Below are positions 9,608-58,165 of a stretch of DNA of 64,000 nucleotides, in pieces. The DNA comes from Paraspadella gotoi. Taxonomy: Eukaryota > Animalia > Chaetognatha. How positions within the stretch are numbered: the stretch's first letter is position 1; each line of letters starts with the position of its first letter. The position numbers and the translations under genes were made by a program. Where the stretch lies: the NCBI GenBank assembly GCA_051294375.1, contig CM119268.1, forward strand, positions 20,316,531 through 20,380,530, in the 5' to 3' direction. The notes beneath the pieces were generated by a model. The model made no database searches. It saw nothing but the letters and a program-made list of their open reading frames with translations, and had not been told where the DNA came from.

Positions 9608-11820
9608 GGGGTGAACTTAGGTAATATTTTGCCTGATTAACTGAGCAGTGTTACTGAAATTGCTTAGGTAAAGAAATGATTTTTCCTAATTAATATAGGC
9701 AATTTCTGAATCAAAATATTTTTGCTTGTATATTTATTTTTAAAGATAAATAAAACAATATATTTTCTTTTATTGTTTTAATTTCGTTATCAACTATATT
9801 TTCAATTTGTTATTACTATATTTTAAGCCTAAAAATACTTTTCCCAGATGGCATGAAATATGAGTATCAGCATTAAGTATGTAAACTACTTGGCTACTAC
9901 AAGACCCAGAACCAATAAAATTATTAAGAAGATTAATTCATTGATAAATAAAAAAATTAACAGATAATAAAGAAATTAGTAATAACAATAAGGATGCATA
10001 CATTTAAAGAGATTTGCAATGTAACATATTCAGTTGTATCCTAATATGATTGACAAGATTAAAACCTTGATCAAAGATGATGTAAAAATGTACACAAGAC
10101 TCAGTCGCCCAAAAATGTTTTGTATCTTATTTAATATGTATTACTCAATACCTCTCTAGCTGATTATATTAAAAATTTCGAGCTCGATATGGAAAGTAAA
10201 TATCCTATGGATATGATTTTAAAATAAAAAAATCTAAAAATATTTTTCTATTTTTTTATCATTAACAAAGATTTTAACTCAAAGTAAAAAATGACATTCT
10301 TGAATACTGAAAAATGTTTATCTTAATTAAAAACAACTATATAATAGACTCCAACCCTGTCACCAAATACCAAACACCAAACATATTTTAGCTATTATTT
10401 ATTTTATAAAATTATTTTATCTTTAATTAAAAACATTTGGGCTAAGACTAATTGAATTTCAATGTTGAGCAAATTAAAGTTTTATATTTGATAAAGATTT
10501 TGTTTAAAAATTACTACAGAAAAATATCCTATTTTGTTATTTTTTTAATTTTATATGAAAATTTGCAAAATTACTTGTTTCACTATCTTATATTTTATAT
10601 TTTATGAATGTTTTACTATTTAAACTTTGTGTGTAAATGCCTTTTCACTCTCTCTCCCTCTTCTTTTGTAGAAAAATTTGTGAGCATTTCACAAAAACTT
10701 TGACGCTGATGAAGGCTCAAACATGTTCGTCTAACAATAAAAATTTTTGTTGTTGCAATTAAATAATTCGTCTCCTTAAACTATTTAATTTATATTATTT
10801 TATTATATATATATTACTTTTTAAAAATATTATTTGCTTGAAGAGACATTAATTATTGTTAAGTGTTAATAACAGAACCGTTCAATATAAGCAGTCCCTG
10901 AGCTTCGGATCAGGCTGTAACACCATCTTACAGGCGGGTTAAGCGCCCCGTTCCTCTTAACTGCTTGGCGGCCACCGGGCTAGAACCCCGGACCTTTGGG
11001 TTGGGAGGCGAATGACTTGCCTCCGGCACCAATGGCCACTGATGAACGGTTGGTGGATTTTAGTCCACCATTTTTGTATTTTCTATGCCTGCGGGGTCGC
11101 GCGTTCGAGGCGTCGGCCGTCGGATGAACAGATTTTGACAAGGAGCAAGGATTTCGTAGTATCTTACTAAATCTCGAAGCGTAAAGAAAAACGTCGAAAA
11201 ATGTAGAATAAATTGTAAATTATTTGTATTATTGTAGAGATAAATCCATGGCAAATCAATGAAAAGTCGAAAAAATGTTTGTAATAAATCCTTGGATCCG
11301 TAAAAACTACGGTTCCAGACGGCCGATCTTTTCTTTAAAAATGATTCTGATCGAATAACAAGTGACGAGGTTTTCGGCCGAAAGAAAGCCACAAGAAAGC
11401 AACTAGAACGGTGAAAAAATAAGGTCAGCTAAGGTCAACTTAAATGACTAAAAAAGAATGACCCGACGCGAGGTAACAAAATATCTTACACTTTTTTTAT
11501 CTAATAACTCATTTTGGGAGGGGGAGGTCAGTGTTGTCTTAAGGAAATAGAGGGAGCATCTATACAACACAAGGTTAGACTACAATAGAATACAATTAGA
11601 CTACAATATTTAATTTAATATCATTTGGCTTCAAATTATTAAAGATAACCTTTCCTTTTTAAATCTTAGCAAATTAGATCATAAGTTTATCAGTTATATC
11701 TTAGTTTTAAAGATCCTTTCCTCAATTAAAAATTGCCTACTTTTATTCAGTTAACTACTAGGTAAACCAAAAAATTGTCTATTACCTATTTAAGAAAAAA
11801 TCTTTGCCTAAGTTCACCCC
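9608..11820. mobile_element. PIF/Harbinger-like non-autonomous element
   Basis: Perfect 14-bp TIR GGGGTGAACTTAGG / CCTAAGTTCACCCC with a 3-bp TAA TSD. Confidence 0.72.
10839..11071 (-). mobile_element. Solo LTR of family 1
   Basis: Reverse complement of the 53206-53444 LTR. The twister motif at 10891-10964 has AACGG instead of GACGG. Confidence 0.85.
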
Positions 11821-12668: not shown

Positions 12669-15600
12669 GACGAAGAGGCGGAACTTCGCGCCACAATCGA
12701 GTCCTTCTCTCCTCGAGAGGGCGAACGCGGCGTCACCGGCTTCCGCTCTAAGCCCCCCCTCGGCGCTGAAGCGGCGTGGGGGGGCGTCAAGGGTGAGGGC
12801 GCCAACCCTTCTATCGTCGCACTCGCCGCCAAATGTTCAGAGTCCATCCTCAATCCCGATTATCTCCTCGGTTAGAAATAAGTTGACACCCCACTCTAAA
12901 ACTAAATATTCTCTGTTCGATTTTATAACATTTAATTATTTCAAATAGCCCCTGGTTCGAATCGCCCCACCCCACCTCAAATGTTACTATTTCTATATCT
13001 AGGTACAAGGCAGCGCGTGTTTCGTGGGCGAACTCTTGTTATTATATTTTTTTTCTGGTCACCTTCCTTCTCTTTCTCTCTTCCTGTCTCTACTTCCTCA
13101 CTTCCTCTTCTCTGCCCTCTGTCATCCTTCTTTCCCTCGTCTCAGACCAGCCAGTACAGAACGTTAATTGATCCATTAAAAAAACAATTTCCCGGTACTA
13201 AAAATAAGTGACGGAAAGCCAAAAAAGAAAGCCTCCCGAGTCCGTTCTCTCTATCCCCTTTTTTTTCCTACCCGCGACTTTTTATCGCAGGCCACGACAG
13301 TCGAGCGCCCTTCAAGCCGCGTATCGACGGACCGACGCCGTCCGCCGACGCCGAGGCGCCATCTGTCGGTTGCGAAACGAAAACAGTCAAAGAGACGGAA
13401 AACAAAACAAAAGGGGACGAAAAGGCGGAGAGAACGACCGTCGGATCCGGTGAGGGTTGAGTGCGTTGACGGGCGATTTTATCTCGCCAGACGGGCTAGA
13501 TTTTGGATCGCTTTAGCTTCTTTGTGACGTCGTTGTCGTCTGCATTGGCGTCACGTTTTTTTATCGTCGCAATCGCTAGCGTTTGCGACGATATTGTAAC
13601 ACTCTTGCGCATAAGTGGCGTCGGCGTTGTCGTCGTCGTCGTCGGCGTTCCAAATTATAGATCGCCTTTTTTATGATTAAATTTGGGTTTATGAAGCTGA
13701 AAATTTATATTCAGCTTCTCATCATCGATGTGCTTAAAATTGAGTCTGAACAGATATTAAATATGTTTTGTTTACGTTTTATCGAAACAAACAAATTTTC
13801 TCTTTTATTTTCATATTTCTCTCTCTCTCTTTTTTTTCTTTTAATTACATGTCTCTCTCCCTCTCTCTTTTCCCTATTCACTGATTCATAATCATAGGGA
13901 AAAAAACGAGTCTGCAGCTGGCTCTGCAGGGGCTTATTCATTTTCTCTATTTTTTCCTGATGCTTTTACTGCTGACTTTTGAGTCTGCAGCTGGCTCTGC
14001 AGGGGCTCTCTTTTTTTCTCTCTTCTCCTGCTGCTTCTGCTTCTGCTTTCTTTTCTCTCTCTCTCTCTTTCTCTTATTTTATTTTATTTTTATTTTAAAA
14101 AAAAATTGAATTGGGATTGAACTCGTAAAATTAGACATCGCATTCGTGCATGATATCATTTTGCAATAGTAATATCGGGTTTTTATTTCACTTTAGTCTT
14201 TACTTCACTTCGTCAGTCTGATTCAAGTTTCACTTTGTCTTTTGTCTGGGAATGCTGACAGTGTTTTCGATCAAACTGCTCGCTTATGCGTGCATAAAGT
14301 AAAACAAAAGTACCTTCAATAATGTTACTCCAGTCTTAGCACTTGCTAAAAATTAAACTCGAAAATAAGTTATTTTACTGTTTTATATTTATTCTTTTGA
14401 CAATGAAAAATTTTTTTTTTCTTTTTTTTCTTTTTTTTTTCAGAAACTGTAACTGTAAATTGACAATCGCAAAATAGAATTTTTCTTTCTGTTTATAAAT
14501 TAATTTTCTTTTTTTCCCCTTTCTATTCTTTCTTTCCTTTCCATTCTTTCTTTCCTTTCTATTCTTTCTTTCCTTTCTATTCTTTCTTTCCTTTCTATTC
14601 TTTCTTTCCTTTCTATTCTTTCTTTCCTTTCTATTCTTTTTTTTTATTCTTTCTTTCCTTTCTATTCTTTATTTATTTTTTTCTTCTTTTTCTTTGTTTA
14701 TAAATTTTTTTTTCAAATTTTATTTTTTTTATTATCAAAATTTGTCGTCAATCCAGATTTTTCTTATGCAATTGCGACGATCCTTATGCTTTTAAGATTT
14801 TTCTTATAAAGTTTTGACTGGGGCTTACAATTTTGTTTTTTTTTTAAATAAAACTACTACAAATAACGATAGATTTTTTATAAAAGTATGCGATCATCGT
14901 TAAAAATTTAGATATGCCTTCTCATCTTTAAGATCTTTGCAATTGTCATGTTTCATATGAAATTACAAGTATTTTTGTTTAATTTCTTTCTCATTATGAT
15001 TTACTGCAATATAAAATTATTTTTTATTAATATGAAAATTAGTATATAGAATACTATATTCTAATTTGCATATTGCAGTAAATCTCCCATAATGAAAGAA
15101 AATTCATACAAAAAATACTTGAATCAATATAAAACATATAATTTTAAAAGACCTTTTTGATGAGAAGCTATATCTAAATTTTAATATAAATAAAAATGCA
15201 CACTTTTATAACTTCCGATTAAAAAAAATTAACAATTTCTAATTGTAAACAATTGTAACATTTTTTTGTCTTTCTTTTTTTTTTAACATTAAAAAAAAAT
15301 AAAAAAAATTTTTGTAAGGCGCTGCCTCTTCTGATTCGTTTAAAAAACGAGTTCAGCTCTGCAGCGGTTGGACTGCTCTTTTTTTCTTTCTTTCTCTCTC
15401 TTTCTTGTTTTCTCATTCTCTCTCTCTCATACCTGCATTTGTTTGTTTTATTTATGATGAATGATTTATCGCATCAATGAATGATTTATCGCATCAATGA
15501 ATGACTATCATCGCATCAATGAATGACTATCATCACATCAATGGTTATCAGCGCATCAATTTTTTTGTTTTTATTTTTTATTTCCTTCTTTTTTTCCTCT

Positions 15601-21538: not shown

Positions 21539-22488
21539 TCTTATGAAGGAAAGGAAAATCCCTCTCGTAACTTTTGAACCCTTGGCCTAAAGTAAATTTT
21601 TTTAAAAATCCCATAAAAATCCGCTTCTCCGTTTGGACTCCAACTCTACCGATAGGTGTCTTTTATTTTATATAGTAATAAAAAGTTCGAATCAATGGCA
21701 ACGGATTTTAAAAAAAGAAAAAGTGTATACATTTTCGGAATCGTCAGAAGGTCTACTTTCTGAATATCTGCTCTGTTTCAGTGTCTTTCGAAGTTTAAAT
21801 TGAGTGATCCCTTGTCTTAAGAATCATGCTCCTCATAAGAGATACATAGTATAGAGAAAGAGGAATAAGGAAAAGAAAAATAGAGGAAAAAGTCAAAGCT
21901 TTTTTAATTTTCCAAAAGTAAATATTTTCTTCTTTTCAACTTTAATTTATTAAAAAAAACTTTTTCCTTTTCGGTTTCCCTATAGAAGGTCTGGAGCGTG
22001 ATTTTGGGCGAATACCGTTTATTCGTATGAGCTTGCAGAAAGGGAAATTGTGATTTTATTTCAACTCTTGCTATTTTTAATAATGTTTCCATTTGTTTAC
22101 ATTTATTTTAATTAATTAAATGGATGAATGCGATTGATACCGCGTTTTGAAAATTTTGTTACTGCTAAAATGACAGTTTTATCTTTTTTTAAAATTGTAG
22201 CGATATTGTAAATTTGTGTAATTTTGTGATAAAATCTCCTCTATCAATTTTTGAAACTCAATTATAATTTATTACTGGAAATTTTACAGTCAGCAATTTT
22301 TTTTTTATCTCACCAGACGGGCGAATTCCAGACTTGGGCGAGATGTTAATTCGTTTGCCTCTTTTGACCGTCGTTGTCGTTATTGTAGTCACGCTGTTTT
22401 AACATTAAAAATAGCTCAAGTGTGTAACCATAGGAAGCTGAAAATTTAGATATGGCTTCTCATCATTGAGGTTTTTTAAATTATTATC

Positions 22489-23176
22489 CTAAATTCGCCT
22501 CCTGTATAGCTTGATGAAACTCAGCTCATCCCATTGGTTTGGACAGCTAAGAACTCGTTCACCAACCGTGAGTTCCGGGTTCAATCCCCTCACGGACACG
22601 TTGGTTAAAGTGATGGTGTCAGCATAAACACGCCAGTAACATAGGGTGGTCACTGCAGGTCCAAAGCCCTGAGCGCCATCTGTCGGGAGATGCTTCACTC
22701 CCTGGGCATCACACATGTCTCCCCGTTGCCATAAGTAGTCCTATTATCGAACACACCACCGCTGCTTACTGTCGCTCACGTTATCGCTTAAGGGTATTCA
22801 TCCCATGCCTATGCCCTACTTCTTGCTCGCTCTTTAACTGTGGCAATGAGTCTGACTACTCTCAAGACAGTCATTCTGGGCTTGAGGACCCCAGTGTGCT
22901 GTCTTGGGGGGGGCATGTATGGAGAATCTTAAATTTGCCTCCCGTATAGCTTAGTGAAACTCAGATCGTCCCATTGCTTTGGACAGCTCGTTCACTCGTT
23001 CACCAACTGTGAGTTCCAGGTTCAATCCCCTCACGGACACGCTGGTTAAAGTGTAATGGTATCGGCATAAACACGCCAGTGATATGGGGTGGTAACTGCA
23101 GGTCCAAAGCCCTAAGCGCCAGCTGTTGGGAGATACTTCACACCCTGGGCATCACACATGTTTCCCCGTTGCTATA
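22489..23176 (+). mobile_element. Miniature LTR element, family 2 (tRNA-like cassette plus twister motif in both LTRs)
   Basis: Direct repeats ~22489-22733 and 22916-23176. A G-run PPT precedes TGTATGGAG at 22916. B box GGGTTCAATCCC. Twister motifs at ~22600-22680 (GATGG..TAA-ACAC-GCC..CAGG-TCCAAAGC-CCTG) and 23041-23123. PBS is not clearly recognisable. Confidence 0.78.
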
Positions 23177-23579
23177 TATGTTTCATATTCCTACACGTTT
23201 TTATTTACAAAACAATTTTTATATATATAGACGAGTTCAGCTATGCAGCAGCTGTACAAAAATAATTAAAGTTGTAAAGAAGAAATTATGATAAGTCAAT
23301 CATTAATTATTTATCTATTAATTGAACCACAAACAAATATACCAATGTAAAATATTAATATTAAACCTTTAGGCAATATAACAAAAATTAATCTAAGCTT
23401 AATACGAATATGACAATATGCAAATGAGATTGAAGAACTTGATCTCATTTGAGATTATCTACAAATTAATCTGTTTTCCGTCGCAGCTTCTTCTGATTCG
23501 TCTAAAAACGAGTTTGCTCTGCAGCGGCTGTCCAGCTTCTCTCTAACTCATATACGCATTTGTTGGTTTTATTTAAGAT

Positions 23580-23823
23580 GAATAACTATCATCGCATCAA
23601 TGAATGACTATCATCACATCAATGACTATCATCGCATCAATGAATGACTATCATCGCATCAATGAATGACTATCATCGCATCAATGAATGATTATTATCG
23701 CATCAATGAATGATTATCATCGCATCAATAAATGATTATCATCGCATCAATAAATGATTATCATCGCATCAATGAATGATTATCATCGCATCAATGAATG
23801 ATTATCATCTCATCAATGAATGA
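23580..23823. repeat. 21-bp minisatellite (ATGAATGACTATCATCGCATC-type; also 15455-15560)
   Basis: Visible tandem units within DINE family C. Confidence 0.9.
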
Positions 23824-24383
23824 TTTTTACATGACAACCTCAGGGCTCGAACCAGGGACGCACATTGGGATGGTGCATTAGTCCACTGAGGCGCTGCAAA
23901 AGAAACAGCCTTAATCCATCTGTGGTGATAGGACCACCAGACAGCCGCCCCCAGGACTCTTACATATGAGAGTACGAAGCAGGGGATGAAGTGCATGTCT
24001 CTCTGCTGAACCTCTCTTCATTCTGGTGGCCTATGCGTTGAGTGGCAGCTCAAACCACATCAAGGGCAGAGGAGTATTATCATTCCCGGTTTGCGTGTTC
24101 AGATAACGTCGGGCTCACCATTGAAGAGGCTGGTTTTATAAGGCGCCACACCCGCAGTGGTATCACCTCGTGGCGACAGCGAGACAGCATGTTCATGTAG
24201 TCCAGAGCTTTGGATCTGGCAGTAGGCCCTTGCCTACAGGCGGGTTACCCAGTCCATCCCACTTTTTACATGACAACCTCAGGGCTCGAAACAGGGACGC
24301 ACATTGGGATGGTGCATTAGGCCACTGAGGCGCTGCGAAAGAAACGGATTTAATCCATCTGTGGTGATAGGACCACCAGAACA
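23824..24383 (-). mobile_element. Miniature LTR element, family 4 (5' LTR 24383-24122, PBS, truncated 3' LTR 23943-23824)
   Basis: On the - strand: TGTTCTGGTGG...CTCTTCA-A-TGGTGAGCCCGACGT, the same PBS as family 1. G-rich tract before the second TGTCTGGTGG. B box GGTTCGAGCCC. Twister motif at 24194-24272 (CATGTA..GATGG..TAA-CCC-GCC..CCAGA-TCCAAAGC-TCTGG..TACATG). Confidence 0.82.
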
Positions 24384-24871: not shown

Positions 24872-27800
24872 ATGACCCGTATCCTCCCCTCTTTCCGGCA
24901 CGCCTCCCTCACCTCTCCCTTTCGACGTCACTTTCGCAAAACGTGCCTCAACTCGGCGCCGGACGAGCGCTCTTCCCGGCGCCGATCGAGGACAGTTTGG
25001 AAGATCGGCCAGCGGTCACCGTTCCGGCGCACGGGGGCCTCGAGCAGCCGCCCGTTTGTCCGAGCATCCGGCAATTTTCTTCCGTACGCCACAAGCCCCG
25101 TTCTGTTCGGGATAACGTTAATTGTTAAATTTGATTTTTCAATTGAAAATTGGTATTAGAAATTAGTTTATTAGTTTATAATGGCAACGGGACATTTTAC
25201 CAACTGGCATAGGGGTTGCGGACCCTCGTTGACCGGCTCCTGTTCCTTGCAATGTTTAAACCGGTTCCGTCACATTTAGCCAGAGTATCGGAATACCCAG
25301 GAATCAAACCCGGGACGCACGGTCGCGGCGATGTGACTTTGCCTGCTCAGGCATTAGATGCGTCAGAAGGCCAACCGAGTTAAGGCGGTTTTAAGTCGTA
25401 GTATCATCACTTATATTCTTCCTCGAATTTGATTTTATTAGAATTATCGACGCCCCTCTCCTCGCGGCGCGTCTCCCCGCCAAGCGACGTTTGTCTTTTT
25501 CTCCTTGCCCCGCGACGCCTCGCGACCTCGACGCGGCGGAGCCGGAAGGCGCTGCTACTCCTGCTGCTCTCGGCGCTAGGTTGAGGGCGGACGTCAGTGA
25601 CGCGTCCCTCTCGAGTGAAAAGGATGATGAGGCACCTGTTCTTCGCTTTCTCAAAGAGGCCGCCGAAGCCGACGACTATTCCGATATCACCGACGCCACT
25701 GCACCCGCTGTCGCTTCTTCAAACGAATCCAATTCCCCGATCGCCGCCTCGCGTCGCTGCCTCAACGAGAGGGCGCTCCTCAACCTTTACGACGCCGTTG
25801 GATCCGAAAACGTCCACATAAGAGACTTTGCCGTCAACGGGGTGGTCGACCGCCCGGTTCTTGGGAGTTCTCCTCATTTCTGGAGCGGAGTCGGGGGCCG
25901 CTGGAGTCCGACAGGGCGAGCAGTCTCACTGAGGAATATAGGTCACGTTTCTGGATCCTATTCGCGAAACGGTGATGCTGGGATGATGTCACCTATTTTG
26001 TTAGCGAATGAAATCTGTTACTGAGATTGGCCCGTCATAAGTTTTCTCAGATGATCAAATTCGTATGTCACTCAAACGCTCAATAATAAGAAAAATGATT
26101 ATAAAAGAATAGTAAATAATAATATGTATTTATTATTAATTATTATTTTTATTATTTATTATTAATAAACACATCTGGCAACATGCCTCAACTTGGTGAC
26201 GCATTTTCCACCAACAACAATACACTGAAGAGACGCAACAGACTTCTCCCTATGGGAGGGGGGGATGTATGGTGGACTAAAATCCACCAACCGTTCATCA
26301 GCGGCCATTGGTGCCGGAGGCAAGTCATTCGCCTCCCAACCCAAAAGGTCCGGGGTTCTAGCCCGGTGGTCGTCTGGGGGACGGGGCGCTTAACCCGCCT
26401 GTAACATGGTGTTACAGCCTGATCCGAAGCTCAGGGACTGCTTATATTGAACGGTTCTGTCATTAACACATATCAATAATTACTGTCTCTTCAATATGTA
26501 ATTATGGTTTGCGACGATATTGTAACGCTTTTGCGCATAAGAGGCGTCGTCGTCGTCGGCGTTCCAAATTATAGATCGCCTTTTTTATAATTAAATTTGG
26601 GTGTATGAAGCTGAAAATTTATATACAGCTTCTCATCATCGATGTGCTTAAAATTGGGTCAGGACAGTTATTAAATATGTTTTGTTTACATTTTATCAAA
26701 ACAAACAAATTTCCTCTTTTATTTTTATGTTTTCTTCTCTTTCTCTTTTAATTATATTTAGCTCTCTCTCTCTCTTTTCCCCAGTGCTGATTCATCGAAA
26801 AAAAAAACGAATCTGCAGCTGGCTCTGCAGGGGCTCTTTTTCTCTCTTTTTTTCTTCTGCTTTTTGAGTTTGCAGCTGGCTCTGCAGGGGCTCTCTCTTT
26901 TTCTCTCTTTTCTCCTGCTGCTTCTGCTGCTGCCTTTTGTTTTGATTTTTCTTTTTTCTCTCTCTGCGTCTTTATTAAAAAAAAATTGAATTAGGATTTA
27001 ATTAGGCATCGCATTCGTGCATGTTATCATTTTGCTATGGCAACATCGGGTTTTTATTTGGTTTTTTTTTCTCGGGGACTGCGTCTGCTGATTAGTTTAT
27101 TTTTTGACAATGAAAAAGTTTTTTTTTTCCTTTCCTTTTTTTTCAGAAACTGTAACTTTAATTTTCTTTGGTACTTTATTATTTTTTTAAATTTACAATC
27201 GCAAAATAGAATTTTTCTTTCTGTTTATAAATTTTTTTTTTCTCATTTTATTTTTTTTAGTATCAAAATTTGTTGTTCATCCAGATTTTTCTTATGCGAC
27301 TGCTTTTAAGATTTTTACTATAATAATCGTTCGTGATAAAACCATTATCCTATGATGTGCATTTCCTCAAATCTTTCATTTGACAAAGTGCGTTTTTCCC
27401 TTTCGTACATCAAGCTTCCTCCGTTTCCCTGTCTCCTCGCCAAGACCAACTGGCCGTCCAGTGCGGCATCTGCGGCAAAATCTACGTGAGGACCTGGCAT
27501 TTAGCCAATCACATGCGAATCCACGACGGCAGGGTCTTTCGATGCAACTTTCCCGGCTGTCGTTCTACCAAGGTGTGGGTGGGAGGATGGAGGTTGATCT
27601 TGCCAACTAGTCAACTACTCGATTTTCAATATTTTTTGGGTTCTTTTTGTAGGGTAATTCGAAATACTGTCAAATAAAATAATTAGAATAATTATTACTG
27701 GTGCAATTAATATTCTATCATGTTTGTACTTCCCCACCAACAAGTGAGCATCTGCTCTGCAAACGCGACATCTCCCGAGAGAAAAACGAAAGAAAAATCC

Positions 27801-30800: not shown

Positions 30801-33443
30801 CAAATCTAAAGAGAATGACATACTTGCTAATACTGTAGTATAAAATTTAACCGGCCCAGCTTTAATTTAACTAGGATACTCAAAAACAAGACATCTTTCT
30901 AAAAATCAATAGCTGGAGGGTAAATTTAAGATTTTTATCAAATTGTGATTGGCTATCTTAAATCTCCTTTTTTCAGGCTCTTTCATGATACTTATATAAA
31001 TAATAATATTTTATGTTATAATAATTTAATCTGGTCATATATTTTAAAAAAAGATTTAAAATTTTAGATAATTAACTTTTGACTCTCTTAATTGAACCAA
31101 GGCTGGGCAGCTTAATTTTTATGTTGGAGCTTTCGTAAGTATATCATTCTCATCATTTTTTTAAGGGCTTTCTGAGGATATTAATATTGTTAATATCTTA
31201 ATAAATACTTTGTTTAAAAAAGAGCTAAAAGTTGAAAAAAAAAAAGAATTTAAAAACAGTGAGTTGGAAAATGAAACCCGATTTTACAAGCCAACTTTCT
31301 CCACTCATTGCCAAGGCATATCTTAACTGATCAATATAAAATTTAAAATTTAATATGTTCTACTCAACTAATTTTTAAAATCAATGAAATAACCACTGGT
31401 TTGAAAATGACAGCGTATTTCTACCGGCGCTTGTAAAATTGTCACCATGTATATATCACTATAATTTTTTTTAAAAATAAATTTATATCTTGAAAAATTT
31501 GATTATTTACTAAAGTGTTCCGTGTTACCCCGCACAACTCTATCGTGTGTCTTTTACATGATTGTTCGCTGATAAGATGAGTTCGTTTTACCCCTGATAT
31601 GTTTTGGTTTTTTTTTTTTTTTTTGAAAAAGGCGATATTTTATTATATTTTTATCAAGGTCGTTTTCATCGTCGTCGTCCACTCGCTCTCGAGAGTCACT
31701 TGGATTCTGGAGTTGTTTACGACTCTCGTGAACGGGGTTCTTGTTATTCTCGAGGGGAAAATGTGTCCTTCATAAAGTCGTCGTTGCCGGGCTTACCGAT
31801 TCGAGGCTCGGCTCCATAGTATTATTACGAATTCCTGACTGTTACCACAACAAAACAATATCGATGTTTCATGCTTCGAATTAGTGATTTTTATCGAATT
31901 TCAGCCCGGGCTCGAACTCGAGACTTAACGGGAGCGCGTTGAACTGACAGTAAAAGCTAGAACGATGTGGCGTCGCTGAGAGATCGACCTCCTTTGGGAC
32001 GCGCGAAGGAAGGGGGGGGGCAACATCGTGGAGAGCTTTTTTTACATGTGATTCAGTCTTCAGATGATGAAAAAAAAAGCAAATAGGAATTCGTTGGTCG
32101 GTTTTTTATTTTCGATTCTTTTAAGATTTGACGGACAGCATAGAAAAAAAAATAGTGAAAGGATAGCGACTATATTATTGCTTACCCGTACTTGCCTCCC
32201 CACCCACTTACCTGTAACCCCTCACTCATAACTCAAAAAAACTACCAATAGTATTGTGGCGGTATATTCACACCGCCTCACGTCCACCATCCTTCAGCCA
32301 AATACATTGGCTCAGAGGGGGAACACACCATCCCAGGCGTAGTGTTCCATCCACAGTCCTAACGACTTCCCTCTGTGTTGGCAAAGCGAGACCGTCCTAG
32401 GGTAACCGCGCCAGTGACTGGAGGCATCACTGAGGGTCGGAAGCCCCCAAAGCCAACAGTGAGATGCCCCATCCCAATGCGCATCACAGGCAACCCGGCT
32501 CTTGCCATAGTATCTTCTTTGTCCACGATTTTGAGGATTGACCAAATGAAGTCCCGCTCCTGCCTGTCCAGGGCTACCTAACCTGCGGCAGCCTCGACCG
32601 TCACAAGCGCCTCAAGCACGATTCGGTGAATTGGCGCAACCACGAGGAGAGGGTGAGGCGAGGCGAGTTGTGCAGCGTCAAGCGACGGGAGATGAAGGAC
32701 GAGCAGAATCCTCGCAGGTACTTACATTACGCTGTAATTCAGATCAAGATGACTCTTCTAGCCCCTTTAAATACTTTTTTCGCAGGTGCTACTCTGATTC
32801 CTGGTTCCATTTCCCGCCATTCGATTATGCTCCTGGCGGCGTATCTCAGCCGGCGCCGAGCCGGGTTTCTCCTCCTCCACTGCCGCCGCCAGCGTCGTCC
32901 CCTTTTTTAGTACATCTCGGCAACGCGGGGAGGAACTCGGCCGCCTCCGTGGTATCGACTTCGCCAACCGTTTCTTCAGTCCCGTTTTCGACCGTTCTCA
33001 TGCCTTCCTCGCCCTTCGGGATCGCTCCTCTCTTTACGACCGAACAACATCCGTTAACCCTCCACGATGAGACGCCGCCGATCTTTGAGCGGCCTTATTC
33101 TCCCTCGGTGTTCAGTAACGTCGCCACAGACGTAGTCGTCAGTACTTCCGACGGCGTCGCCGGCGTCGATTCTTCCATCGCTTGTCAAAATCTCGACCCC
33201 GACTTCGAGGACCTCGCCGGCTCCGCCCAATCGTGGATCGGAAACAGCGTCGCCGAGCGGTTTTTCGCTGCCCACAGTGGAGGTAGCGGCGTCGTCCCTG
33301 ACGAAAAGCAAAATGCTCCGCTGCCGGATTTACCGTTTGGTTCCTGGATTGCCGGCGCTGAATCCTCAGCGTCGGGCCACTCCAATAACAACAACAACAA
33401 TCCACTTTTCTTTTTGAAGAACGCGACCATTAATATTGTCTGA
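24872..33443 (+). CDS. C2H2 zinc-finger protein (two fingers; 5' exons tentative)
   Basis: Exon ~27415/27445-27572 encodes CGICGKIYVRTWHLANHMRIH and CNFPGCRSTK. Splicing to 32572-32717 (GYLTCGSLDRHKRLKH) completes the second finger across a 5-kb intron. The last exon 32786-33443 is Pro/Ser-rich. Upstream GC-rich ORF blocks 24872-~25083 and ~25443-~25970 are probable but their splice sites are uncertain. Confidence 0.7.
25178..25406 (-). mobile_element. Solo LTR-like copy, family 5 (tRNA-like cassette plus degenerate twister at 25204-25283)
   Basis: - strand reads ...CCCGGGTTTGATTCCTGGG...CTGGC-TAA-ATGT-GACGG-AACCGGTT-TAA-ACAT-TGC...AGGG-TCCGCAAC-CCCT-ATGCCAG...CCCGTTGCCA. The end matches family 2. 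Boundaries are approximate. Confidence 0.65.
26168..26493 (+). mobile_element. 5'-truncated family-1 element (part of interior, PPT, 3' LTR 26266-26493)
   Basis: Near-identical to 53110-53444; GGGAGGGGGGGA-TGTATGG...CTCTTCA. The twister lacks the CAGTTAAGA segment (5' strand of P5). Confidence 0.85.
27712..29992 (+). mobile_element. DIRS-like (tyrosine-recombinase retrotransposon) non-autonomous/degenerate element
   Basis: Inverted terminal repeats at ~27729-27861 and ~29823-29952 with unique outer extensions. An internal complementary region at 28566-28651 is the reverse complement of the joined ends. ATTC is shared at both termini. The interior has broken ORFs; no RT or YR motifs were recognised. 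Confidence 0.85.
30653..31312. repeat. Foldback/MITE with long imperfect inverted repeats
   Basis: TGGCAATGAATGGAGAAAATTGGCTTGTAAAATCGGGTTTCATTTT vs AAAATGAAACCCGATTTTACAAGCCAACTTTCTCCACTCATTGCCA. Confidence 0.75.
32255..32509 (+). mobile_element. Solo LTR, family 3, with twister motif at 32377-32457
   Basis: TGTGGC...GCCATA flanked by the 4-bp TSD GTAT. A box TGGCTCAGAGG and B-like GTTCCATCC. Twister reads GTTGGC..GACCG-TCCTAGGG-TAA-CCGC-GCC-[CAGTGA/TCACTG]-AGGG-TCGGAAGC-CCC..GCCAAC. Confidence 0.85.
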
Positions 33444-34801: not shown

Positions 34802-37996
<3,195 letters not shown>

Positions 37997-41700: not shown

Positions 41701-43310
41701 GTCCGATTAAAGCAAAACTTGAGATTTACAATATTCCCGTCATTCCACATCTATCGATATAAAAATATAAGAAAAAAGTCACTGGCTTCTTTTTCTATAG
41801 CGGCTTCCTATATTTCATCAACCTTTAAACCTTTTAGTCAAACGACCCCACCTCGACATTTAAACTTCTCCGGACACTTCTACCGTCGAAAGAAACTCCT
41901 TCCTTCTTCTTTAATTCGCCGCGACATTGTAGTCTCCAATTGCCCATTGACTGAGAGTGTTGTCTGGTCTTCGACAAACGATTCCACCTGCATTTCTAAA
42001 CTAGGAGGGAGCAAAGATTGGTCGCCTTCCTACCCTTTGGGGCTGCCGTCCCCACCGGCGTTGCGAACTCCCGTGGCACTGCGATCCCCTCCGGTAGTGC
42101 GGTCCCCTTCGCTTGTTGGCTCTTCGATAATTATGCGGTCTGACGGAAGAAACAAGGTTCCGGCTTCAAGTCCCGACTTGAAAAAAGGTCCTGACTGAAG
42201 TTTAATTTTCTTTTTTGTGCGTAATGCGTTGCCTTTTTATCGTTTAAGTTAAATGCCCAAATTTTTTCTTCTTTTTCTGCAGCGATACATGACAGCAACT
42301 CCTCAACGACTTTTGCTTCTTTTTTGCGAAAGACTAGGGTTCGTATTGGCACAGAGTTTTGATAATAAAACGAATTGTTATTTTCTTTTATGTTTGTTTA
42401 ATTTCCTGTTAAAAAATGATTAAAAATATGAGCGTCTGTTTTTTGCTGTGGTTTTGCACATAAGTGGCGTCGTCGTCGGCGGCGTTCCAAATTATAGATC
42501 GCCTTTTTTATGATTAAATTTGGGTGTATAAAGCTGAAAATTTATATAAAGCTTATCATCGATCGATGTGCTTAAAATTGAGTCAGGACAGTTATTAAAT
42601 ATGTTTTGTTTACGTTTTATCAAAACAAACAAATTTTCTCTATTTTATTTTTATATTTCTTTCTCTCTCTCTTTTCCCTAGTCACTGATTCATCGGGAAA
42701 AAAACGAGTCTGCAGCTGGCTCTGCAGCGGCTTATTCTTTTTCTTTCTTTTCTCCTGCTGCTTCTGCCGCTGCCTTTGAGTCTGCAGCTGGCTCTGCAGG
42801 GGCTCTCTCTTTTTCTCTCTTTTCTCCTCCTGCTGCTGCTTTTTGATTTCTTTATGAAATTGGTACAACCAATATAAAAATTATCCATTCATTTAATAAA
42901 TAAGCTATCTTGCCCCTGACTTTGGACAGGCTTTGGTGGTTTAAGGCCTCCATCACTCTTACAAGATAATGACATTGCAGGTCCCTGCAAGTTTTCAATC
43001 AAGACTCTCTCACAGTCTTGTTTATTCACTCCCAGAGTACCTGGCTTCCCTATCAATGAAGTGGAAAATATTTCAAAGAATGTTTCAATTGTATGAAAAG
43101 ACCACTCCCTTAAGTATTAGATCGGGGAATACTTATTGTACTCCGCACTAGCATCAAAATACAAGGAGCTGAATTTTATGAAATTGGTACAACCAATATA
43201 AAAATTATATATATATATTTTTTTCTCTCTTCTCTCTCTCTGCGTTTTTATTTACAAAAAAATTGAATTAGGATTGAACTCGTAAAATTAGGCATCGCAT
43301 TCGTGCATGT

Positions 43311-43573
43311 TGTGGCGGTATATTCATTTTTCATTATTCACACCGCCTCACGTCCACCATCCTTCAGCCAAATCCTTTGGCTCAGAGGGGGAACACACCA
43401 TCCCAGGCGTAGTGTTCCAACCACAGTCCTAACGACTTCCCTCTGCGTTGGCAAACCGAGACCATCCTAGAATAACCGCGCCAGTGACTGGAGGCGTCAC
43501 TGAGGGTTAAAAGCCCCCAAAGCCAACATGCCCCATCCCAATGGGCATCACAGGCAACCCGGCTGTTGCCATA
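43311..43573 (+). mobile_element. Solo LTR, family 3 (degenerate twister), inserted in a DINE-like element
   Basis: Homologous to 32255-32509. The 4-bp TSD ATGT restores the host sequence GCATGTTATC. Confidence 0.85.
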
Positions 43574-44254
43574 ATGTTATCATTTTGCTATCGTGCTGAT
43601 GCTTTTCGCGCGGAAAAAGAAGTGACGCGTCTGTCGGCACAGCAGCACTTCGACGGGGACCCGCAGCGGCGGGGCGGACGATGCTGCAGCGCTGCACCAA
43701 AAAAAGATACTTTTTCGATGGTTTTTTGTTTTCGTTTTTTTCTGATGCACTGCGCGGTAGTCTCGCCTTTAGTGAGACAAAAGGCATTTGTGGGGGGGGG
43801 GTTCGATCAAGAATCGTGATTCCATTTGGAGTCTAAGATTTTGCTATGCAACATCGGCTTTTTATTTCTTTTTTTTTTCAGGGGCTGCATCTGCTGATTA
43901 GTTTATTTTTAAAATTGATTTAGGAAAAACAGTTTTCTATACATAATAAAATTGATTTAAATTAACAATCGCAAAATCGAATTTTTCTTTGTTTACAAAT
44001 TTATTTATTTGACAATGACAAAAAAAAATTTTTCATTTTTTTTATTTATTTATTTTGTTTTTCAGAAACTATAACTATAATTTTCCTCGGTACTTTAATA
44101 TTTTTTTTAATTGACAATCGCAAAATGTAATTTTTATTTCTGTTTATAAATTAATTTTCTTTTCTCAAATTTTATTTTTTTTAGTATCAAAATTTTTCGT
44201 CAATCCAGATTTTTCTTATGCGATAGCCACGATCCTTATGCTTTTAAGATTTTT

Positions 44255-47619: not shown

Positions 47620-50600
47620 ATGACGAGCCAACGCTCGACCCTCGTCGACCACGACGAGCTCGCCGAACTCGCCGACGACGAGCAGGTGTATCGAAACCAA
47701 GACGGACAACCACCTCCGGTTCTTCAAGTAAGAAAAATCAGATCGTCTCAGTAACGAGTAATGACAATTGTAAAATTACAGTCCTGTGCAAGAAAATCCT
47801 AAATAGCACGTGTTTCATTCATGAATTCAAACAAATTTTAATTGGTTAATAGAGCTCCGGAGATAATATAAAATTTCTCATTATAAAATTTTTTTTTAAA
47901 TCTTAAAATTTTTTGATGTATTCTGATAGAGCATAAAAAGTTAAACATGAAATATAATTACATCTTTTAAAAATTCTTACATTTTCTAAGTGAAAATAAA
48001 AAAAACTGATAAAATCATTGAAAGATGATGATTTTTTATGGTTTTTCTTATTTTTGACTCATCATGAAAATATTTGAAAAAGAAATATAATTTGTGCAGA
48101 CAACTTTTTATGAGCTATCTGAATCTGGTCTTAAAATTTAAAAATTATCAAAACAAATTTTGGCCTTTCCTGTCTATAATTAAATATTTAAAAAATAATT
48201 ATTTGGGTATAGAGCCATAAAAATTTAGACATTTTTAAGGATACTTTCAATGGACAAAAAAATTTTAATATGGCTCTATACCCTAGTAATTCATTTTTTT
48301 AATATTTATAGATATTTATAGATATTTATAGAATTTTTAAATTTTAAGACCAGATTAAAATAGCTCATAAAAAGTTGTCTACACAAAGTATAATTCTTTT
48401 TTAAATATTTTTACGATAAGTGTGTCAAAAATAAGAAAAACCGTGAAAAATCATCATCATCTTTCGATGATTTTATTAGTTTTTTATATTTTCACTTAAA
48501 AAACGTAAGAATTTTTAAAAGATGTAATTATATTTCTTATTTAACTTTTTATGCTCTATCAGAATCCATCAAAAAATTTTAAGATTTAAAAAAATTTTTG
48601 TTTTGTTTTATATAGTAATATAATATTTTTAATTAGGCTAGTACCCTCAGAAGAAAGCATTTTTGATAAAAAATACTTTAATACCATAATCTATGGTCAT
48701 GATAGATTATTTTAACGCTGTATACATTAGCATTTAAATTTCATCGGCTATGGCTATTGAAAGTACACTTCAAAATGTATAAATTTTCGTTTGAGCATGT
48801 AATCATTCTAAATTTTTGCCTCACACCATTGAGTGGGGCGATGTGAAAATAATATTTTTTTTTAAATTTAAATTTAGTTTTCAAAATGAAAATTTTAAAA
48901 TTTCAAGAACGGATTTGGATTCTTTGCAAAAAGTTAATATAAGAAAATATAATTATTTTTTGAAAATTATTTTATTAAGTTGATCAAAAATATAAAAAAG
49001 TATAAAAGTATATATAAACGCTGATTTTTAATTTTCTGTTAAAAAATATAGTTTTTTATAATTTTAACCTACTTCATGATATAATTTTTATTATTTTCTC
49101 TCTTTTCGTTGCTAAGTGAATATTAGGAATTGTTTTTTGTTTGCCAATACAACGATTTTTATATATATATAAAAATCGTTGTATTGGCAAACAATAAACA
49201 ATTCCTGATATAATTTTTAAAAAATATTTACATTTTCCTTTATCAACTTTTTATGAAAAATCTGAATGTTCTTAAAAAACACTTTTAAAATTTTAACATT
49301 ATATAAGGGTAATATTATATACAAAATAAGCTGATTGGGCTATAATATGTATAAAAAAAATTATAGATTAGTATTTATTAATATGATAGTTTTCAAGATA
49401 TATCTGCTAAATTTTGATTTCAAACTTTTACTTCATTCTATGGTTAATGTAGATTTTTAAAAGTAGTATTTATATGTGTAAGTTAAAAAAAATAGGTCTA
49501 GCAACCGAAAGACAAATGGTCAAAATAAAAAAATGGGGGGAAAAATATTTTAGAAGATCTACAGTCCTGTGTAACAAAAAGGATACCCAAAAACATTATA
49601 AAAATAAATCACGTTAGATTTTTTTTAAAATAAAAGATATTATAAATGAATAATAGAGAGTCCGGACTTGAATCTTACCCCCCCCCATTTACCCCATACG
49701 CACAATTGTTTTACAACATTTAATTTTTTATCGCAGAAGAATCGTTAAGGATTTTTCTATCTTTTGGATTGTATTTAGTTTTGCTATATCGAAAAACATT
49801 AGTATGGGAAGCAACCGAAAACCAGCAGTCATGTTTGCTCCACGCCGAAATATTTAAAAATTGACTATATAAATATTTTCATTCCTGCAAAAGTTACAGT
49901 GATCAACCTTATGCGTTTCTTTATGGTGGTTTTGAGAGAGTACGGTTCATAGATTTCTCAAATAAAAAATCGGAGACCTGACGTTATTCTAACTAAATTT
50001 ATTACTACAAATTTTTACAGCATAAACAAATTAATACCGCAGCATTTACTAACATTTGTGATAATAAAAAAATATTCTGGATATGACCCCATCTAAGCAT
50101 TTTTAAGGGAAAAATACCATAATATTCATAAAAGGGAAATTTTAAAAAATTATAAATTATATTATCTACCTCTGTAACTTTTGTAATTAATTAGATAAAG
50201 AATTTGTACCTTGTGGGACTATTAAAAATGGAATTCTCAACTAAAATTAAAAATTTAAATCTTAAAAGAAAATTGAAGCTGCAGTATGCTGCAGTAACTT
50301 GAAGTACCATACAATTACCGGGATTAGGTCCCTGACTTATAAACCAACGATCTATGTTATTTATACAACATAATATACTTAGTTACTAGAATAAAATAAG
50401 ATTTCTTTTAATATAATTTCTCCAAATTTTGGCCTCAGGGCATTATGCCCTATATAATACAGTATCTAAATTCATTTGGATATTGCAGTATGGGGCGAAT
50501 TTAATGTAACTCTCAACAGTACTTGTAACCGTAATTACATCAATCTCGACCCATACACAGTGATACCAAGAAAGTAAAGATTTTTCATATCGTCTACTCG

Positions 50601-53600
50601 TCTCTGGAAGGGTCTTAGGTAAGGTATACTTCATAAATGAGTAGCTGACATAAGTAAAATGACCAATCAAATAATTGATGAAATTAATTTTTTTAGATAT
50701 ATCATTAAGTACAAATTTAAGTCCGAACCCTGTATTTATGGAAAAATTTGGTTAATCTATGGCTATCCGTTATGAAACTAATTTTTTAAATATAATTACT
50801 CTGTTTTAATTACTAAATACTCAAACAGAATGTGAAAGCAAAAAAAATTTGAATATTTTTAAAACCTCTTATGTTTATTGTTTAAGGTGTATTCATAATT
50901 TTTTTAAAAAACATAAATATAATGCTCATAAATTAAGGCGAAAAAAGTATCTTTGGTTTTTGGCAGATTTTCAAGAAATGGTTTTTGGAAGCGATTTAAA
51001 TGACAATTTTTTTAAATTTTATAATAAAGGAATCTAATAAGCTTTATTTAGGCAATGTTTTTATTATGTCCTCTTTTTTTTTTTGCACAGGTCTGTATAT
51101 TACATTTATGAAATTGCTACAATCAATATGAAAAATATATATTCATTTAATAAATAAATTAATTTAATCTTGCCCTGATTTTGGACACACTGCTGGTTTA
51201 TGGCCTGCATCACTTCTAAAAGATTATAACATATCAGAACCTTATTTATTCACTTCTACAGTACCTGGCTTGCTTATTAATTAAGTGTAATAATATTTTA
51301 AAAAATGTTTTATTTGTAAAATATTATTCCTTTTGTCCTTTCTTACGTCTTAATCTCCAGTTGCAAGAAGACTCGGCCTTCGATCATTCTTCTTCCGCCG
51401 ACGAATCTCCCCGCCCGACACCCGCCCCCTCCCATACTCCATCCTCGCTCGACAAGCGGGCGACAGCGGCGAATCCCTCCGCCGTTCCCTCGCAGGTCGT
51501 TTTTGTCAACCACGCCTTTCAACACGACAACAGTAAGTAGCAGAGTATGATTGAATGATTGGTATATTCGATTTTTGTTTGATTTGATTGATTGACTGAT
51601 CAAATCGATTGATTGATTTAACTACAGAAAACTTCATTTTGTTACCAGAACACGCCCCGAGAAAACTCATACCAAATTTATTGAAATTTGATATGAACGA
51701 TCCCTATGTTAATACAAATAGAACTATCGAGGCGAATTTCAATATTTGACCCCTGAGCTGAGATATGGGGCCCCGGAGGGGTCACCCATAGGGGCAAAAA
51801 ATGGTCAAAAATTTTTATCGTCGCAATTGCTAAGCGTTTGCGACGATATTGTAACGCTTTTGCGCAGAAGTGGCGTCGTCGTCGTCGTTGTTGTTGTCAG
51901 CGTTCCAAATTATAGATCGCCTTTTTTATGATTAAATTTGGGTGTATGAAGCTGAAAATTTATATACAGCTTTTCATCTTCGATGTGCTTAAAATTGAGT
52001 CTGGACAGTTTTTAAATATGTTTTGTTTACGTTTTATTTTCAAAACTAACAAATTTTCTCTCTTTTATTTTCATATTTCTTTCTCTCTTCTTTTCTCTTT
52101 AATTACATGTTCCTCTCCCTCTCTCTTTTCCCTAGTCACTGATTCATAATCATAGGGGAAAAAAACGAGTCTGCAGCTGGCTCTGCAGGGGCTTATTCTT
52201 TTTCTCTCTTTTCTCTTGCTGCTTCTGCTGCTGCCTTTTGATTTCTTTTTTTTTCTGGGTGTCTTGCTGCCGCTGAAAAATGATTTGGCTGTTTCTTTTT
52301 CTTTCTCTCTCTCCTGAAATTAATTTTTTCCTCTCTAAAAACTTTTTATTATCGCCATTTATTCAAAATTTACATCCAGATTTCGTGGATTTTTTTCGTG
52401 GATTTTTTTTTTTTTTTAAATTTTCTTTATTTTTCTCAAATTTGATTGTTTGGTATATCAAAATTTGTCGTCAATCCAGATTTTCTTATGCAATTGTCAC
52501 GATCCTATTGCTTTTAAGATTTTTTTCAATTGTTGCACAGACGTTTACTCTTCCTCAAAAACGTATTTATTACCACCAAAATATTAGTTTACCTTAATTT
52601 CAGCTTCATGAACATCAGCTGTTCAAGTCAGATTTTGAATAATTTGGGAAAATTGGAAGTAAAACGATGAACCATGCATCTTCAAACCATGCTTATTGCT
52701 TAATTTTTGAAAATTTATTAATTTTAGTTCTAAATTTGTTTATATGTTTAAAACTACCAAAAAATTTTTAAAAAATGAAAAAATGAAATAGTATGGTGGA
52801 CTAAAATCCACCAACCGTTCATCAGCGGCCATTGGTGCCGGAGGCAAGTCATTCGCCTCCCAACCCAAAGGTCCGGGTTCTAGCCCGGTGTCGTCTGGCA
52901 GTTAAGAGGGACGGGGCGCTTAACCCGCCTGTAACATGGTGTTACACGCCTGATCCGAAGCTCAGGGACTGCTTATATTGAACGGTTCTGTCATTAACAC
53001 TTATCAATAATTACTGTCTCTTCATTGGTGAGCCCGACTTCCGAACACAACAGCAACAACAACACTTTCAGGCGACATGCCTCAACCTGGCGATGCACTT
53101 TCCGCCCACAACACATCAGGCAACATGCCTCAACTTGGTGACGAACTTTCCACCAACAACAATTCACTGAAGAGACGCAACAGACTTCTCCTACGGGAGG
53201 GGGGATGTATGGTGGACTAAAATCCACCAACGCGTTCATCTATCAGCGGCCATTGGTGCCGGAGGCAAGTCATTCGCCTCCCACCCAAAGGTCCGGAGTT
53301 CTAGCCCGGTGGTCGTCTGGCAGTTAAGAGGGACGGGGCGCTTAACCCGCCTGTAACATGGTGTTACAGCCTGATCCGAAGCTCAGGGACTGCTTATATG
53401 AACGGTTCTGTCATTGACACTTATCAATAATTACTGTCTCTTCAATAGATTAACTTAAAAAGAAAAATATTACGTAAAGATTTGTGCAAATGTTTGATGT
53501 GTGGCATTTGATTTCGACTGATGACGATGTGAGCGATGCACCCCTTTTCCTTCCCCAGCATCCGCCCAGCTTTCCTCCACCCCCGCTCCTCGAGTGATAG

Positions 53601-57404: not shown

Positions 57405-58165
57405 TTTTTATCGCTTTGCGTTTGCGACGATTTTGCTGTGGTTTTGCACATAAGTGGCGTCGTCGTTGTCGTCGGCGGCGTTCCAAATTATACTATAATT
57501 TATAGATCGCCTTTTTATGATTAAATTTGGGTGTATGAAGCTGAAAATTTATATACAGCTTCTCATCATTGATGTGCTTAAAATTGAGTCTGGACAGTTA
57601 TTAAATATGTTTTGTTTACGTTCATCAAAACAAACAAATTTTCTCTTTTATTTTTATATTTCTTTCTCTCTCTCTCTCTTCTCTTTTAATTACATCTCTC
57701 TCCCTCTCTCTTTTCTCGAGTTACTGATTCATAGGGAAAAAAACGAGTCTGCAACTGGCTCTGCAAGGGCTTATTCTTTTTCTCTCTTTTCTCTTGCTGC
57801 TTCTGCCTTTTGATTTTTTCTTTTTTTTCTCTCTCTCTCTCTGCGTTTTTATTAAAAAAAATTGAAATAGGATTGAACTCGTAAAATTAGGCATCGCATT
57901 CGTCATGTTATCATTTTGCTATCGCAACATCAGGTTTTTATTTTTTTATTTTTTTTTCTCAGGGGCTGCGTCTGCTGATTAATTTAATTTTTGACAATGA
58001 AAATTTTTTTTTTTAGAAACTAACTTTAATTTATAAATATAATTTTTCTTTCTGTTTATAAATTAATTTCTTTTTTCAAATTTTCTTTTTTTTAGTATCA
58101 AAATTTGTCGTCATTCCAGATTTTTCTTATGCGATTGCGACGATCCTTATGCTTTTAAGATTTTT
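57405..58165 (+). mobile_element. Helentron-associated DINE/HINE-like family A (other copies 13557-14802, 26508-27316, 42445-44256, 51813-52527)
   Basis: Five homologous copies. The 5' subTIR ATCGTCGCAATCGC has an adjacent inverted copy (best seen at 13563); the 3' subTIR GCGATTGCGACGAT is followed by a short hairpin CTTATGCTTTTAAG. Copies carry internal (GTC)n and CT-rich microsatellites and sit in T runs without TSD. Confidence 0.75.

Follow-up and report, generated by a model that had tools for sequence, protein, structure and literature searches.

Two groups of small retroelements come close to the locus described here, F1, which lies at 52792-53444 on the forward strand of a 64,000-nucleotide stretch of the genome of the chaetognath Paraspadella gotoi (contig CM119268.1 of assembly GCA_051294375.1; the whole stretch is called the window below). 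The first group, Helenus/TRIMp3, comprises miniature terminal-repeat retrotransposons (TRIMs) with tRNA-like long terminal repeats (LTRs), which in animals show a 4-bp target-site duplication (TSD) and a Gypsy-type primer-binding site (PBS) (Kojima, 2024, PMC10886601). The second is formed by the plant LTR retrozymes, non-coding elements with a hammerhead ribozyme in both LTRs (Cervera et al., 2016, PMC4918200). Reviews divide retrozymes into plant LTR and animal non-LTR elements, with hammerheads in both (PMC7229834, PMC7761336, 10.64898/2026.07.22.740005). The last of these, a 2026 preprint, presents LTR retrozymes as mainly plant elements and leaves twisters unmentioned in its accessible part; unpublished elements of insects, bearing hammerheads of type III, are hinted at in PMC7761336. 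These papers and those cited below, together with further literature (PMC5408937, PMC13570524, PMC7936874), are represented here by their accessible parts.

F1 had been put forward as a candidate new class of retroelement. This is not borne out, as tRNA-bearing animal TRIMs are already published as Helenus/TRIMp3 (PMC10886601) and ribozyme-LTR circles as plant retrozymes (PMC4918200). Structurally, F1 is a Helenus TRIM; by analogy it likely works like an LTR retrozyme, though without a hammerhead it falls outside the defined LTR retrozyme family. The novelty, within the literature searched, is the ribozyme, a twister fold, within such an LTR element. In that literature no paper describing a twister inside an LTR element was found; the Roth 2014 alignments, the PMC11662667 supplement, Repbase/Dfam and most subscription journals lay outside the search and could list one.

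Anatomy of F1 and its place among known systems

F1 is 653 bp long (<1 kb), non-coding and bounded by two LTRs, as TRIMs are. The 5' LTR (52792-53024, 233 bp) terminates in CA and the 3' LTR (53206-53444, 239 bp) has TG...CA ends; the pair shows 229 matches, one substitution and seven small gaps over 230 aligned bases, in keeping with the two repeats of about 235 bp first read here. Because the LTRs differ by just these changes, the sequence points to a young insertion. Several of the gaps are mostly absent from contigs of public sequencing runs and are therefore copy-specific or assembly errors. Flank comparison gives ATAG on both sides (52788-52791 and 53445-53448), which is probably the 4-bp TSD of this copy, as had been proposed, provided that the 5' LTR has lost its initial TG. 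The original prediction had a 654-bp element starting at 52791: the element stands and the start does not, as it falls one base inside the TSD once the 5' LTR is read without its first TG.

The non-coding internal region (53025-53205, 181 bp) lacks TTTT, contains a tandemly duplicated 48-bp segment (53057-53161) and has the predicted PBS and polypurine tract (PPT) at its two ends. The PBS, TGGTGAGCCCGAC (53026-53038), is of tRNA-Trp type and agrees at 12 of 13 bases with the published tRNA-Trp PBS of Gypsy-32_NVi and Helenus-2_SyJa, the reference being the published PBS and not a host tRNA. The PPT lies at 53195-53205, and both signals recur in F2, a second family described below. The hairpin announced for the 5' end of the LTR also appears in the predicted fold, as a 7-bp U3 hairpin at 52794-52813. 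The longest ATG-started open reading frame of F1 on either strand has 81 aa, and no Pfam match was found. The F1-type element is real and abundant in the host genome: 18,759 contigs of public run X2 (same organism) align to an 841-bp stretch carrying F1, and 155 of them diverge into other sequence exactly past the final CA of the LTR (after 53024). Contig depth over F1 far exceeds that of the flank, depth not being equivalent to copy number; runs X10 (two contigs aligned) and X11 had small shares and were excluded as evidence, as was run X9, a presumed RNA run represented by contigs.

With Helenus, F1 shares a length below 1 kb, a tRNA-like sequence with A and B boxes in each LTR, a PBS and a PPT, a 4-bp TSD, and a Gypsy-type PBS for tRNA-Trp as in Helenus-2_SyJa. 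It differs by the twister fold added after the tRNA-like segment (the accessible text of PMC10886601 mentions ribozymes only when citing retrozymes), by the lack of a T-run after the B box, and by an A box that departs from TRGCY...YGG. On inspection by eye, what appears to be a full type III hammerhead, its loops 1 and 2 complementary, lies 3' of the B box in the LTRs of the wasp elements Helenus-2_SyJa and Helenus-2_SyUm (PMC10886601 DataS1), which have no T-run and a tRNA-Trp PBS one base from that of F1. This hammerhead is unmentioned in the accessible part of PMC10886601. The other animal Helenus entries of its supplement showed no ribozyme core by eye, which is not a computed scan.

The likeness to plant LTR retrozymes (PMC4918200) lies in the non-coding sequence, the matching position of the self-cleaving motif (predicted in F1) in the two LTRs, the PBS, PPT and 4-bp TSD, and the presumed Gypsy helper. 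However, plant LTR retrozymes have a type III hammerhead, LTRs of 300-400 bp, units of 600-1000 nt and a tRNA-Met PBS, whereas the animal elements described here have a type-P5 twister, LTRs of 235-260 bp, a unit of 422 nt, a tRNA-Trp-type PBS and a tRNA-like promoter cassette, and the circle of F1 is predicted only. Metazoan non-LTR retrozymes and the hammerheads of Penelope pseudo-LTRs (PMC7229834, PMC6765202) are tandem repeats with type I hammerheads and, unlike F1, without LTR, PBS or PPT; schistosome repeats carry a tRNA, also without LTRs. The twister T-variants of Perere-3 (Liu et al., 2021, PMC8501958) resemble F1 as reduced-P1 twisters in an animal retroelement, but there an autonomous non-LTR element carries a single type-P1 ribozyme at its 5' end, with no LTRs and no circle.

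The twister fold in each LTR

The type-P5 twister fold proposed for each LTR is upheld by covariation over four LTR families and by an independently trained model, and on this sequence evidence it very probably represents an active twister. In the first copy (52898-52972), P5 pairs 52898-52903 with 52967-52972, P2 pairs 52906-52909 with 52924-52926 around a bulged A, and P4 pairs 52949-52953 with 52962-52966. The P1 spacer (52915-52920) is palindromic, and T2 (52927-52928), P3 (52930-52946) and L4 (52954-52961) follow. The pseudoknot strand with G, A and T1 is GACGG (52910-52914), and not the upstream GAGGG. The second copy occupies 53320-53393. The predicted cuts, U52921/A52922 and U53343/A53344, fall where they had been placed, 422 nt apart. 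The conserved L1 and L4 bases, including the cleavage-site A and the general-base G, are intact in both copies, and a hammerhead core is absent from the F1 element.

These parts were placed by hand mapping, and a descriptor was then written from the F1 layout, i.e. after the element had been seen; it gave five matches in the window, all within LTRs, and none in 300 window shuffles or 20,000 element shuffles. A relaxed twister-core pattern gave nine window matches, all in LTRs of four families at seven loci. The three families besides F1 (F2, then F3 and F4) were reached through a PBS match, lie in the same window and have the same layout.

Across these diverged families the mean column identity is 55% and the structure is retained. 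All nine copies retain UAA and the two T2 pairs, and 7/9 retain the general-base G. The T1 pairs are C-G/C-G/G-C in F1, C-G/C-G/A-U in F2 and F3, and C-G/G-C/G-C in F4, T2 being invariant. P4 exchanges U-A, A-U and G-C between families, and P2 has 3 bp with a bulge in F1 and F2 and 4 bp in F3 and F4. Covariation was counted over T1, T2 and P4 in eight of the nine copies (the copy near 26 kb, which bears a deletion, was omitted); P2, P3 and P5 were left uncounted, as the aligned copies are out of register in these parts. In this set, 93% of 72 cells pair, and five of nine pairs changed on both sides, one of these changes coming from a decayed F4 copy; the score was reached by 0/500 shuffles, a count that is not a probability because the four families are related, which also inflates the number of both-side changes. 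Slid registers all gave 50% pairing or less.

The independent covariance model, R1, was trained solely on 12 type-P1 twister halves from outside the window. The LTR copies were its top eight of 14 matches, with E-values of 6e-5 to 2e-3 for F3 and F4 and 0.15-0.32 for F1 and F2 (0.15 for the second copy of the full F1 element); the first copy, which has one extra base, came tenth with an E-value of 3.6.

Rfam gave a different answer. It found no twister at gathering score in the window and none at E<=10 on the F1 element, an absence that the original prediction had named as telling against it; F4 gave only a partial twister-P1 match (E 1.3). The miss of F1 is likely due to the Rfam P5 model, in which P1 measures 8 bp and a P3 arm is lacking, whereas in the F1 RNA the P3 arm is present and P1 is nearly absent. 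Among the outside loci, positive controls were recognized as twister-P1 (L004, L005, L009) and Twister-P5 (L141, 49.5 bits), and the last, a natural P5 twister, shares the 3-base P2 strand with F1. Compared with RF02684, F1 has the same permutation, the UAA, GA, GC and AAGC bases and both pseudoknots. It differs in that P1 is a palindrome of 6-8 bases and P3 is present in F1-F4, with a bulged 3-bp P2 and a 5-bp, A-U-closed P4 in F1 and F2. As these ribozymes escape standard Rfam scans, other animal genomes may contain similar elements that have gone unnoticed.

Within the host, variants at 1% or more in the F1 core were confined, over four runs, to 53358-53360 (the P3 tip) and two CpG sites, power being poor near the ends of the stretch. 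Also, the LTRs of Ajax-1_NGe and Ajax-1_LiLo (PMC10886601 supplement) share 12 bases around the F1 cut site, within a small hairpin. They were considered as twister carriers and rejected, no twister L4 being visible by eye; the shared 12-mer may be due to chance or be a common motif.

Proposed transcription, cleavage and movement

The tRNA-like segment described for each LTR, with A-box-like and B-box-like motifs, was recovered as tRNA-Gly(CCC)-like by ARAGORN at the 80% threshold, in all four F1 LTRs (including 52824-52896 and 53246-53317) and in the F2 3' LTR. Default settings gave no tRNA in the F1 element, F3 and F4 were uncalled even at 80%, and this threshold also yields spurious Leu and Tyr calls over the ribozyme. 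In the 5' LTR the A-box-like motif is at 52833-52844 and the B-box-like motif at 52876-52886; at tRNA position 57 the latter has a T, off what we take to be the consensus. Such motifs are kept at tRNA spacing across F1-F3, GGTTC being retained at 52876, in the F2 3' LTR and in F3, and degenerate in F4. The F1 A box reads TGGTG...AGG and so lacks the typical, though not required, TRGCY and YGG motifs of Helenus. Judged from these motifs, the segment is likely an RNA polymerase III (Pol III) promoter. TTTT is absent from the sense strand of the F1 element and of one unit of each family, with a joint chance of 0.016-0.027.

Our preferred reading, to which we give a probability of roughly 0.55, is that F1 is a Pol III-transcribed, doubly cut TRIM moving as a 422-nt RNA circle copied by a Gypsy-type helper; the LTR anatomy and the covarying fold are its observed parts. 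Pol III would start near 52824 and, as the element has no TTTT, read through both ribozymes. Cuts at 52921/2 and 53343/4 would release a unit-length RNA with a 5'-OH, a 2',3'-cyclic phosphate and no terminal repeat, and by analogy with retrozymes the circle would be closed by RtcB, an enzyme that circularizes the monomers of animal retrozymes in vitro (PMC7229834). A Gypsy reverse transcriptase primed by tRNA-Trp could then travel more than once around the circle, rebuilding the LTR-internal-LTR order, and the integrase of the presumed helper would leave the 4-bp TSD. The PBS and TSD fit the pattern of Gypsy-dependent animal Helenus. A host RtcB gene lies in the window at about 35000-37800 (+), a nearness to F1 that is probably a coincidence.

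The palindromic P1 suggests cleavage as an LTR-LTR dimer. The spacer from the T1 strand to the cut has six bases in F1 and F2 and eight in F3 and F4, and in each of the four families the best copy has a self-complementary tetranucleotide at the centre of this spacer, against a background of 0.10 per 4-mer, the families not being independent. The F1 spacer can form either a hairpin with a single G-U pair, short of the 2 bp of a minimal P1, or a 6-bp duplex between two copies. This duplex amounts to -8.3 kcal/mol and that of F4 to -11.0, those of F2 and the decayed F3 being weak (-2 to -3). Where a transcript contains both LTRs, the swapped arrangement is a nested one. A parallel comes from the axolotl, where a hammerhead of a single base pair with a palindromic tetraloop shows better cleavage in dimeric form (PMC7229834). 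P1 has been reported as dispensable in twisters, and monomer cleavage is therefore possible. That the palindrome makes the cut efficient only when two LTR copies are paired, sparing solo-LTR transcripts and the circle, we rate a little below even odds.

Several observations weigh against the preferred reading. For the fold, these are the silence of Rfam, RF02684 included, the relatedness of the families and the weak R1 scores of F1 and F2 (E 0.15-3.6). The P2 of F1 has 3 bp with a bulge and its P4 is closed by A-U, both also in F2 and unlike the 12 outside twisters. Imperfections of P1, P2 and P4 are tolerated in type-P1 twisters in a large test (PMC11662667), which may not carry over to P5. 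The predicted F1 ensemble gives P2 zero probability, with a competing hairpin over the cut site and a cost of about 8 kcal/mol before tertiary contacts, and the 422-nt monomer surpasses shuffles in folding by a modest margin only (z -1.9). A T1-breaking G-to-A change at 52957 reaches about 16% of X2 depth, with no compensating change among the variants listed; a change of this type was not seen at the equivalent site in the four-run comparison. The swapped dimer and two monomers have nearly equal energies (-181.1 against -178.9 kcal/mol, and -204.7 against -204.6 when the entire element is folded), and folding energy was rejected as a discriminator because it does not separate them. For transcription, the A and B boxes are off consensus, with a degenerate B box in F4. 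One TTTT stands in the truncated F2 3' LTR, upstream of its tRNA-like part, where it probably arose by CpG decay, and a T5 lies within an insertion of one F4 solo LTR. As to the helper, no reverse transcriptase or integrase domain was found in the 140 highest-complexity of the 220 window reading frames of at least 75 aa.

A serious alternative, though rather less likely than the preferred reading, makes the twister a 3'-end maker replacing the Pol III terminator: a linear RNA from about 52824 to 53343 would keep its 5' ribozyme uncut, and the 98-nt segment from tRNA to cut would act as R in ordinary LTR strand transfer. The ribozyme does occupy the position just 3' of the B box that in most of the published Helenus LTRs is taken by a T-run (by eye), the F1-F4 units are without TTTT, the competing hairpin could slow the first cut, and the circle step becomes unnecessary. 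However, the two ribozyme cores are identical but for one extra base, so that any 5'/3' asymmetry must come from context, and a dimer geometry would activate both sites. Moreover, the precedent of plant and animal retrozymes is double cleavage and circles, and fish Helenus also lack the T-run with no ribozyme visible by eye.

It is rather improbable that the ribozymes are active and the tRNA-like part is no Pol III promoter, the unit being cut from host transcripts of Pol II or read-through origin, with a packaging or processing role for the tRNA-like fold. The non-consensus boxes and the silence of ARAGORN on F3 and F4 would agree with this. Read-through transcription has been proposed for retrozymes (PMC7761336), an LTR promoter has been reported for a plant retrozyme, and the Pol III activity of Helenus itself is unvalidated in the accessible text of PMC10886601. 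Against it stand the tRNA spacing of the motifs kept in F1-F3 and the absence of sense-strand TTTT. Finally, the twister fold is very improbably an inactive passenger captured from another retroelement by an ordinary Helenus TRIM, a reading that suits the missing Rfam match, the weak P1 and P2 of F1, the competing hairpin and the decay of at least four of nine cores, but not the compensatory T1 and P4 changes, the P3 and P5 arms that differ in sequence, the catalytic bases fixed over four families or the confinement of F1 core variants.

More tentatively, in a scenario that we find possible but doubtful as a whole, F1-F4 would be the first LTR retrozymes of animals and the first retrozymes to use a twister. 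They would be TRIMs headed by a tRNA-like segment and driven by Pol III, in which the palindrome of P1 imposes a strand-swapped double twister on the two LTR ribozymes, with only full-length transcripts cut and circularized. The ribozyme slot would be interchangeable (hammerhead in the wasp Helenus-2, twister in F1-F4) in a wider, overlooked tRNA-Trp-primed group. If the preferred reading is true, both rules of the retrozyme division would be broken by an abundant LTR element that belongs to an animal and carries a twister. Such an element would give twisters a second natural job and bear on how Pol III-driven TRIMs such as Helenus set their RNA ends. Dimeric hammerheads would likewise have a counterpart in a twister that naturally depends on dimer formation, which would be a natural version of tandem-twister circular-RNA constructs.

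A 7-bp stem (52815-52821/52979-52985) encloses the tRNA-like segment and the ribozyme. As its 5' strand is upstream of the likely Pol III start, it could form solely in the 3' LTR copy, and it might make the two ribozymes unequal.

Further copies, genomic context and outside sequences

Two further F1 copies are present in the window. A 5'-truncated copy (26168-26493, +) retains the internal part and the 3' LTR, with a 9-base deletion that removes the P5 5' strand; a solo LTR (10839-11071, -) has the general-base G changed to A and no TSD seen. F2 (23824-24383, -) has a 262-bp 5' LTR with a tRNA-Gly-like segment and a twister (cut 24247/6), the same PBS as F1 (24120-24108), a PPT, and a 3' LTR from 23943 that is truncated before its ribozyme. 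F3 (22486-23176, +) has two decayed LTRs, 87.6% alike, a PPT and a decayed PBS, and its twisters (cuts 22625/6 and 23068/9, +) have a canonical 4-bp P2. F4 is represented by two solo LTRs on the + strand: that at 32255-32509 has the TSD GTAT and a twister (cut 32403/4) with the second compensatory T1 change, and that at 43311-43573 has the TSD ATGT and a decayed twister. A 4-bp TSD is thus present at three of seven loci (the full F1 copy, with its TG loss, and the two F4 solo LTRs), the other four having no intact end. The F3 and F4 LTRs (ends 22733, 23176, 32509 and 43573) finish in ATA and not CA, share a common U5 hairpin, and in F4 have clean 4-bp TSDs; their helper possibly differs from that of F1 and F2.

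The window is animal genomic DNA, with an intronless ARF6 and RtcB, SENP, PhyH and CD225 exons; its ARF6 differs at 9/173 residues from a solved ARF6, the human one. A 22-bp tandem repeat occurs at 23578-23825, where it cuts off the F2 3' LTR, and at 15457-15560. A second dispersed repeat family with internal tandem repeats is found at 13558-14802, 26507-27303, 42441-44254, 51812-52527 and 57410-58165, several of its members adjoining LTR elements. Long palindromes, e.g. at 47891-48594, resemble miniature inverted-repeat transposable elements.

Outside the host, degenerate-pattern matches in viral, metagenome (26 loci) and prokaryote (27 loci) collections left no P5 twister in an LTR after structural filtering, direct repeats being searched at 18/26 metagenome loci. 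This absence means little because these collections hold little animal DNA, and relatives of the F1/F2 type could not be found in the metagenome scan because the pattern demanded a 4-base P2 and P4. The matches that proved genuine comprised twisters of type P1 and a single normal P5 twister (L141). A type-P1 twister (Rfam E 3.6e-11) lies at 278-338 (-) of L005/L073, close to where this viral contig of 1.4 kb ends and, by eye, downstream of an apparent RNA polymerase reading frame. Tandem pairs of type-P1 twisters occur in the viral contigs L004 (446-512/809-871, +) and L060 (549-601/697-735, -), about 360 and 130 bases apart, and could release unit-length RNAs. A near-identical type-P1 twister is present in eight metagenome contigs (L009, L015, L017, L020, L021, L024, L025 and L028; Rfam E 8.5e-11 for L009).

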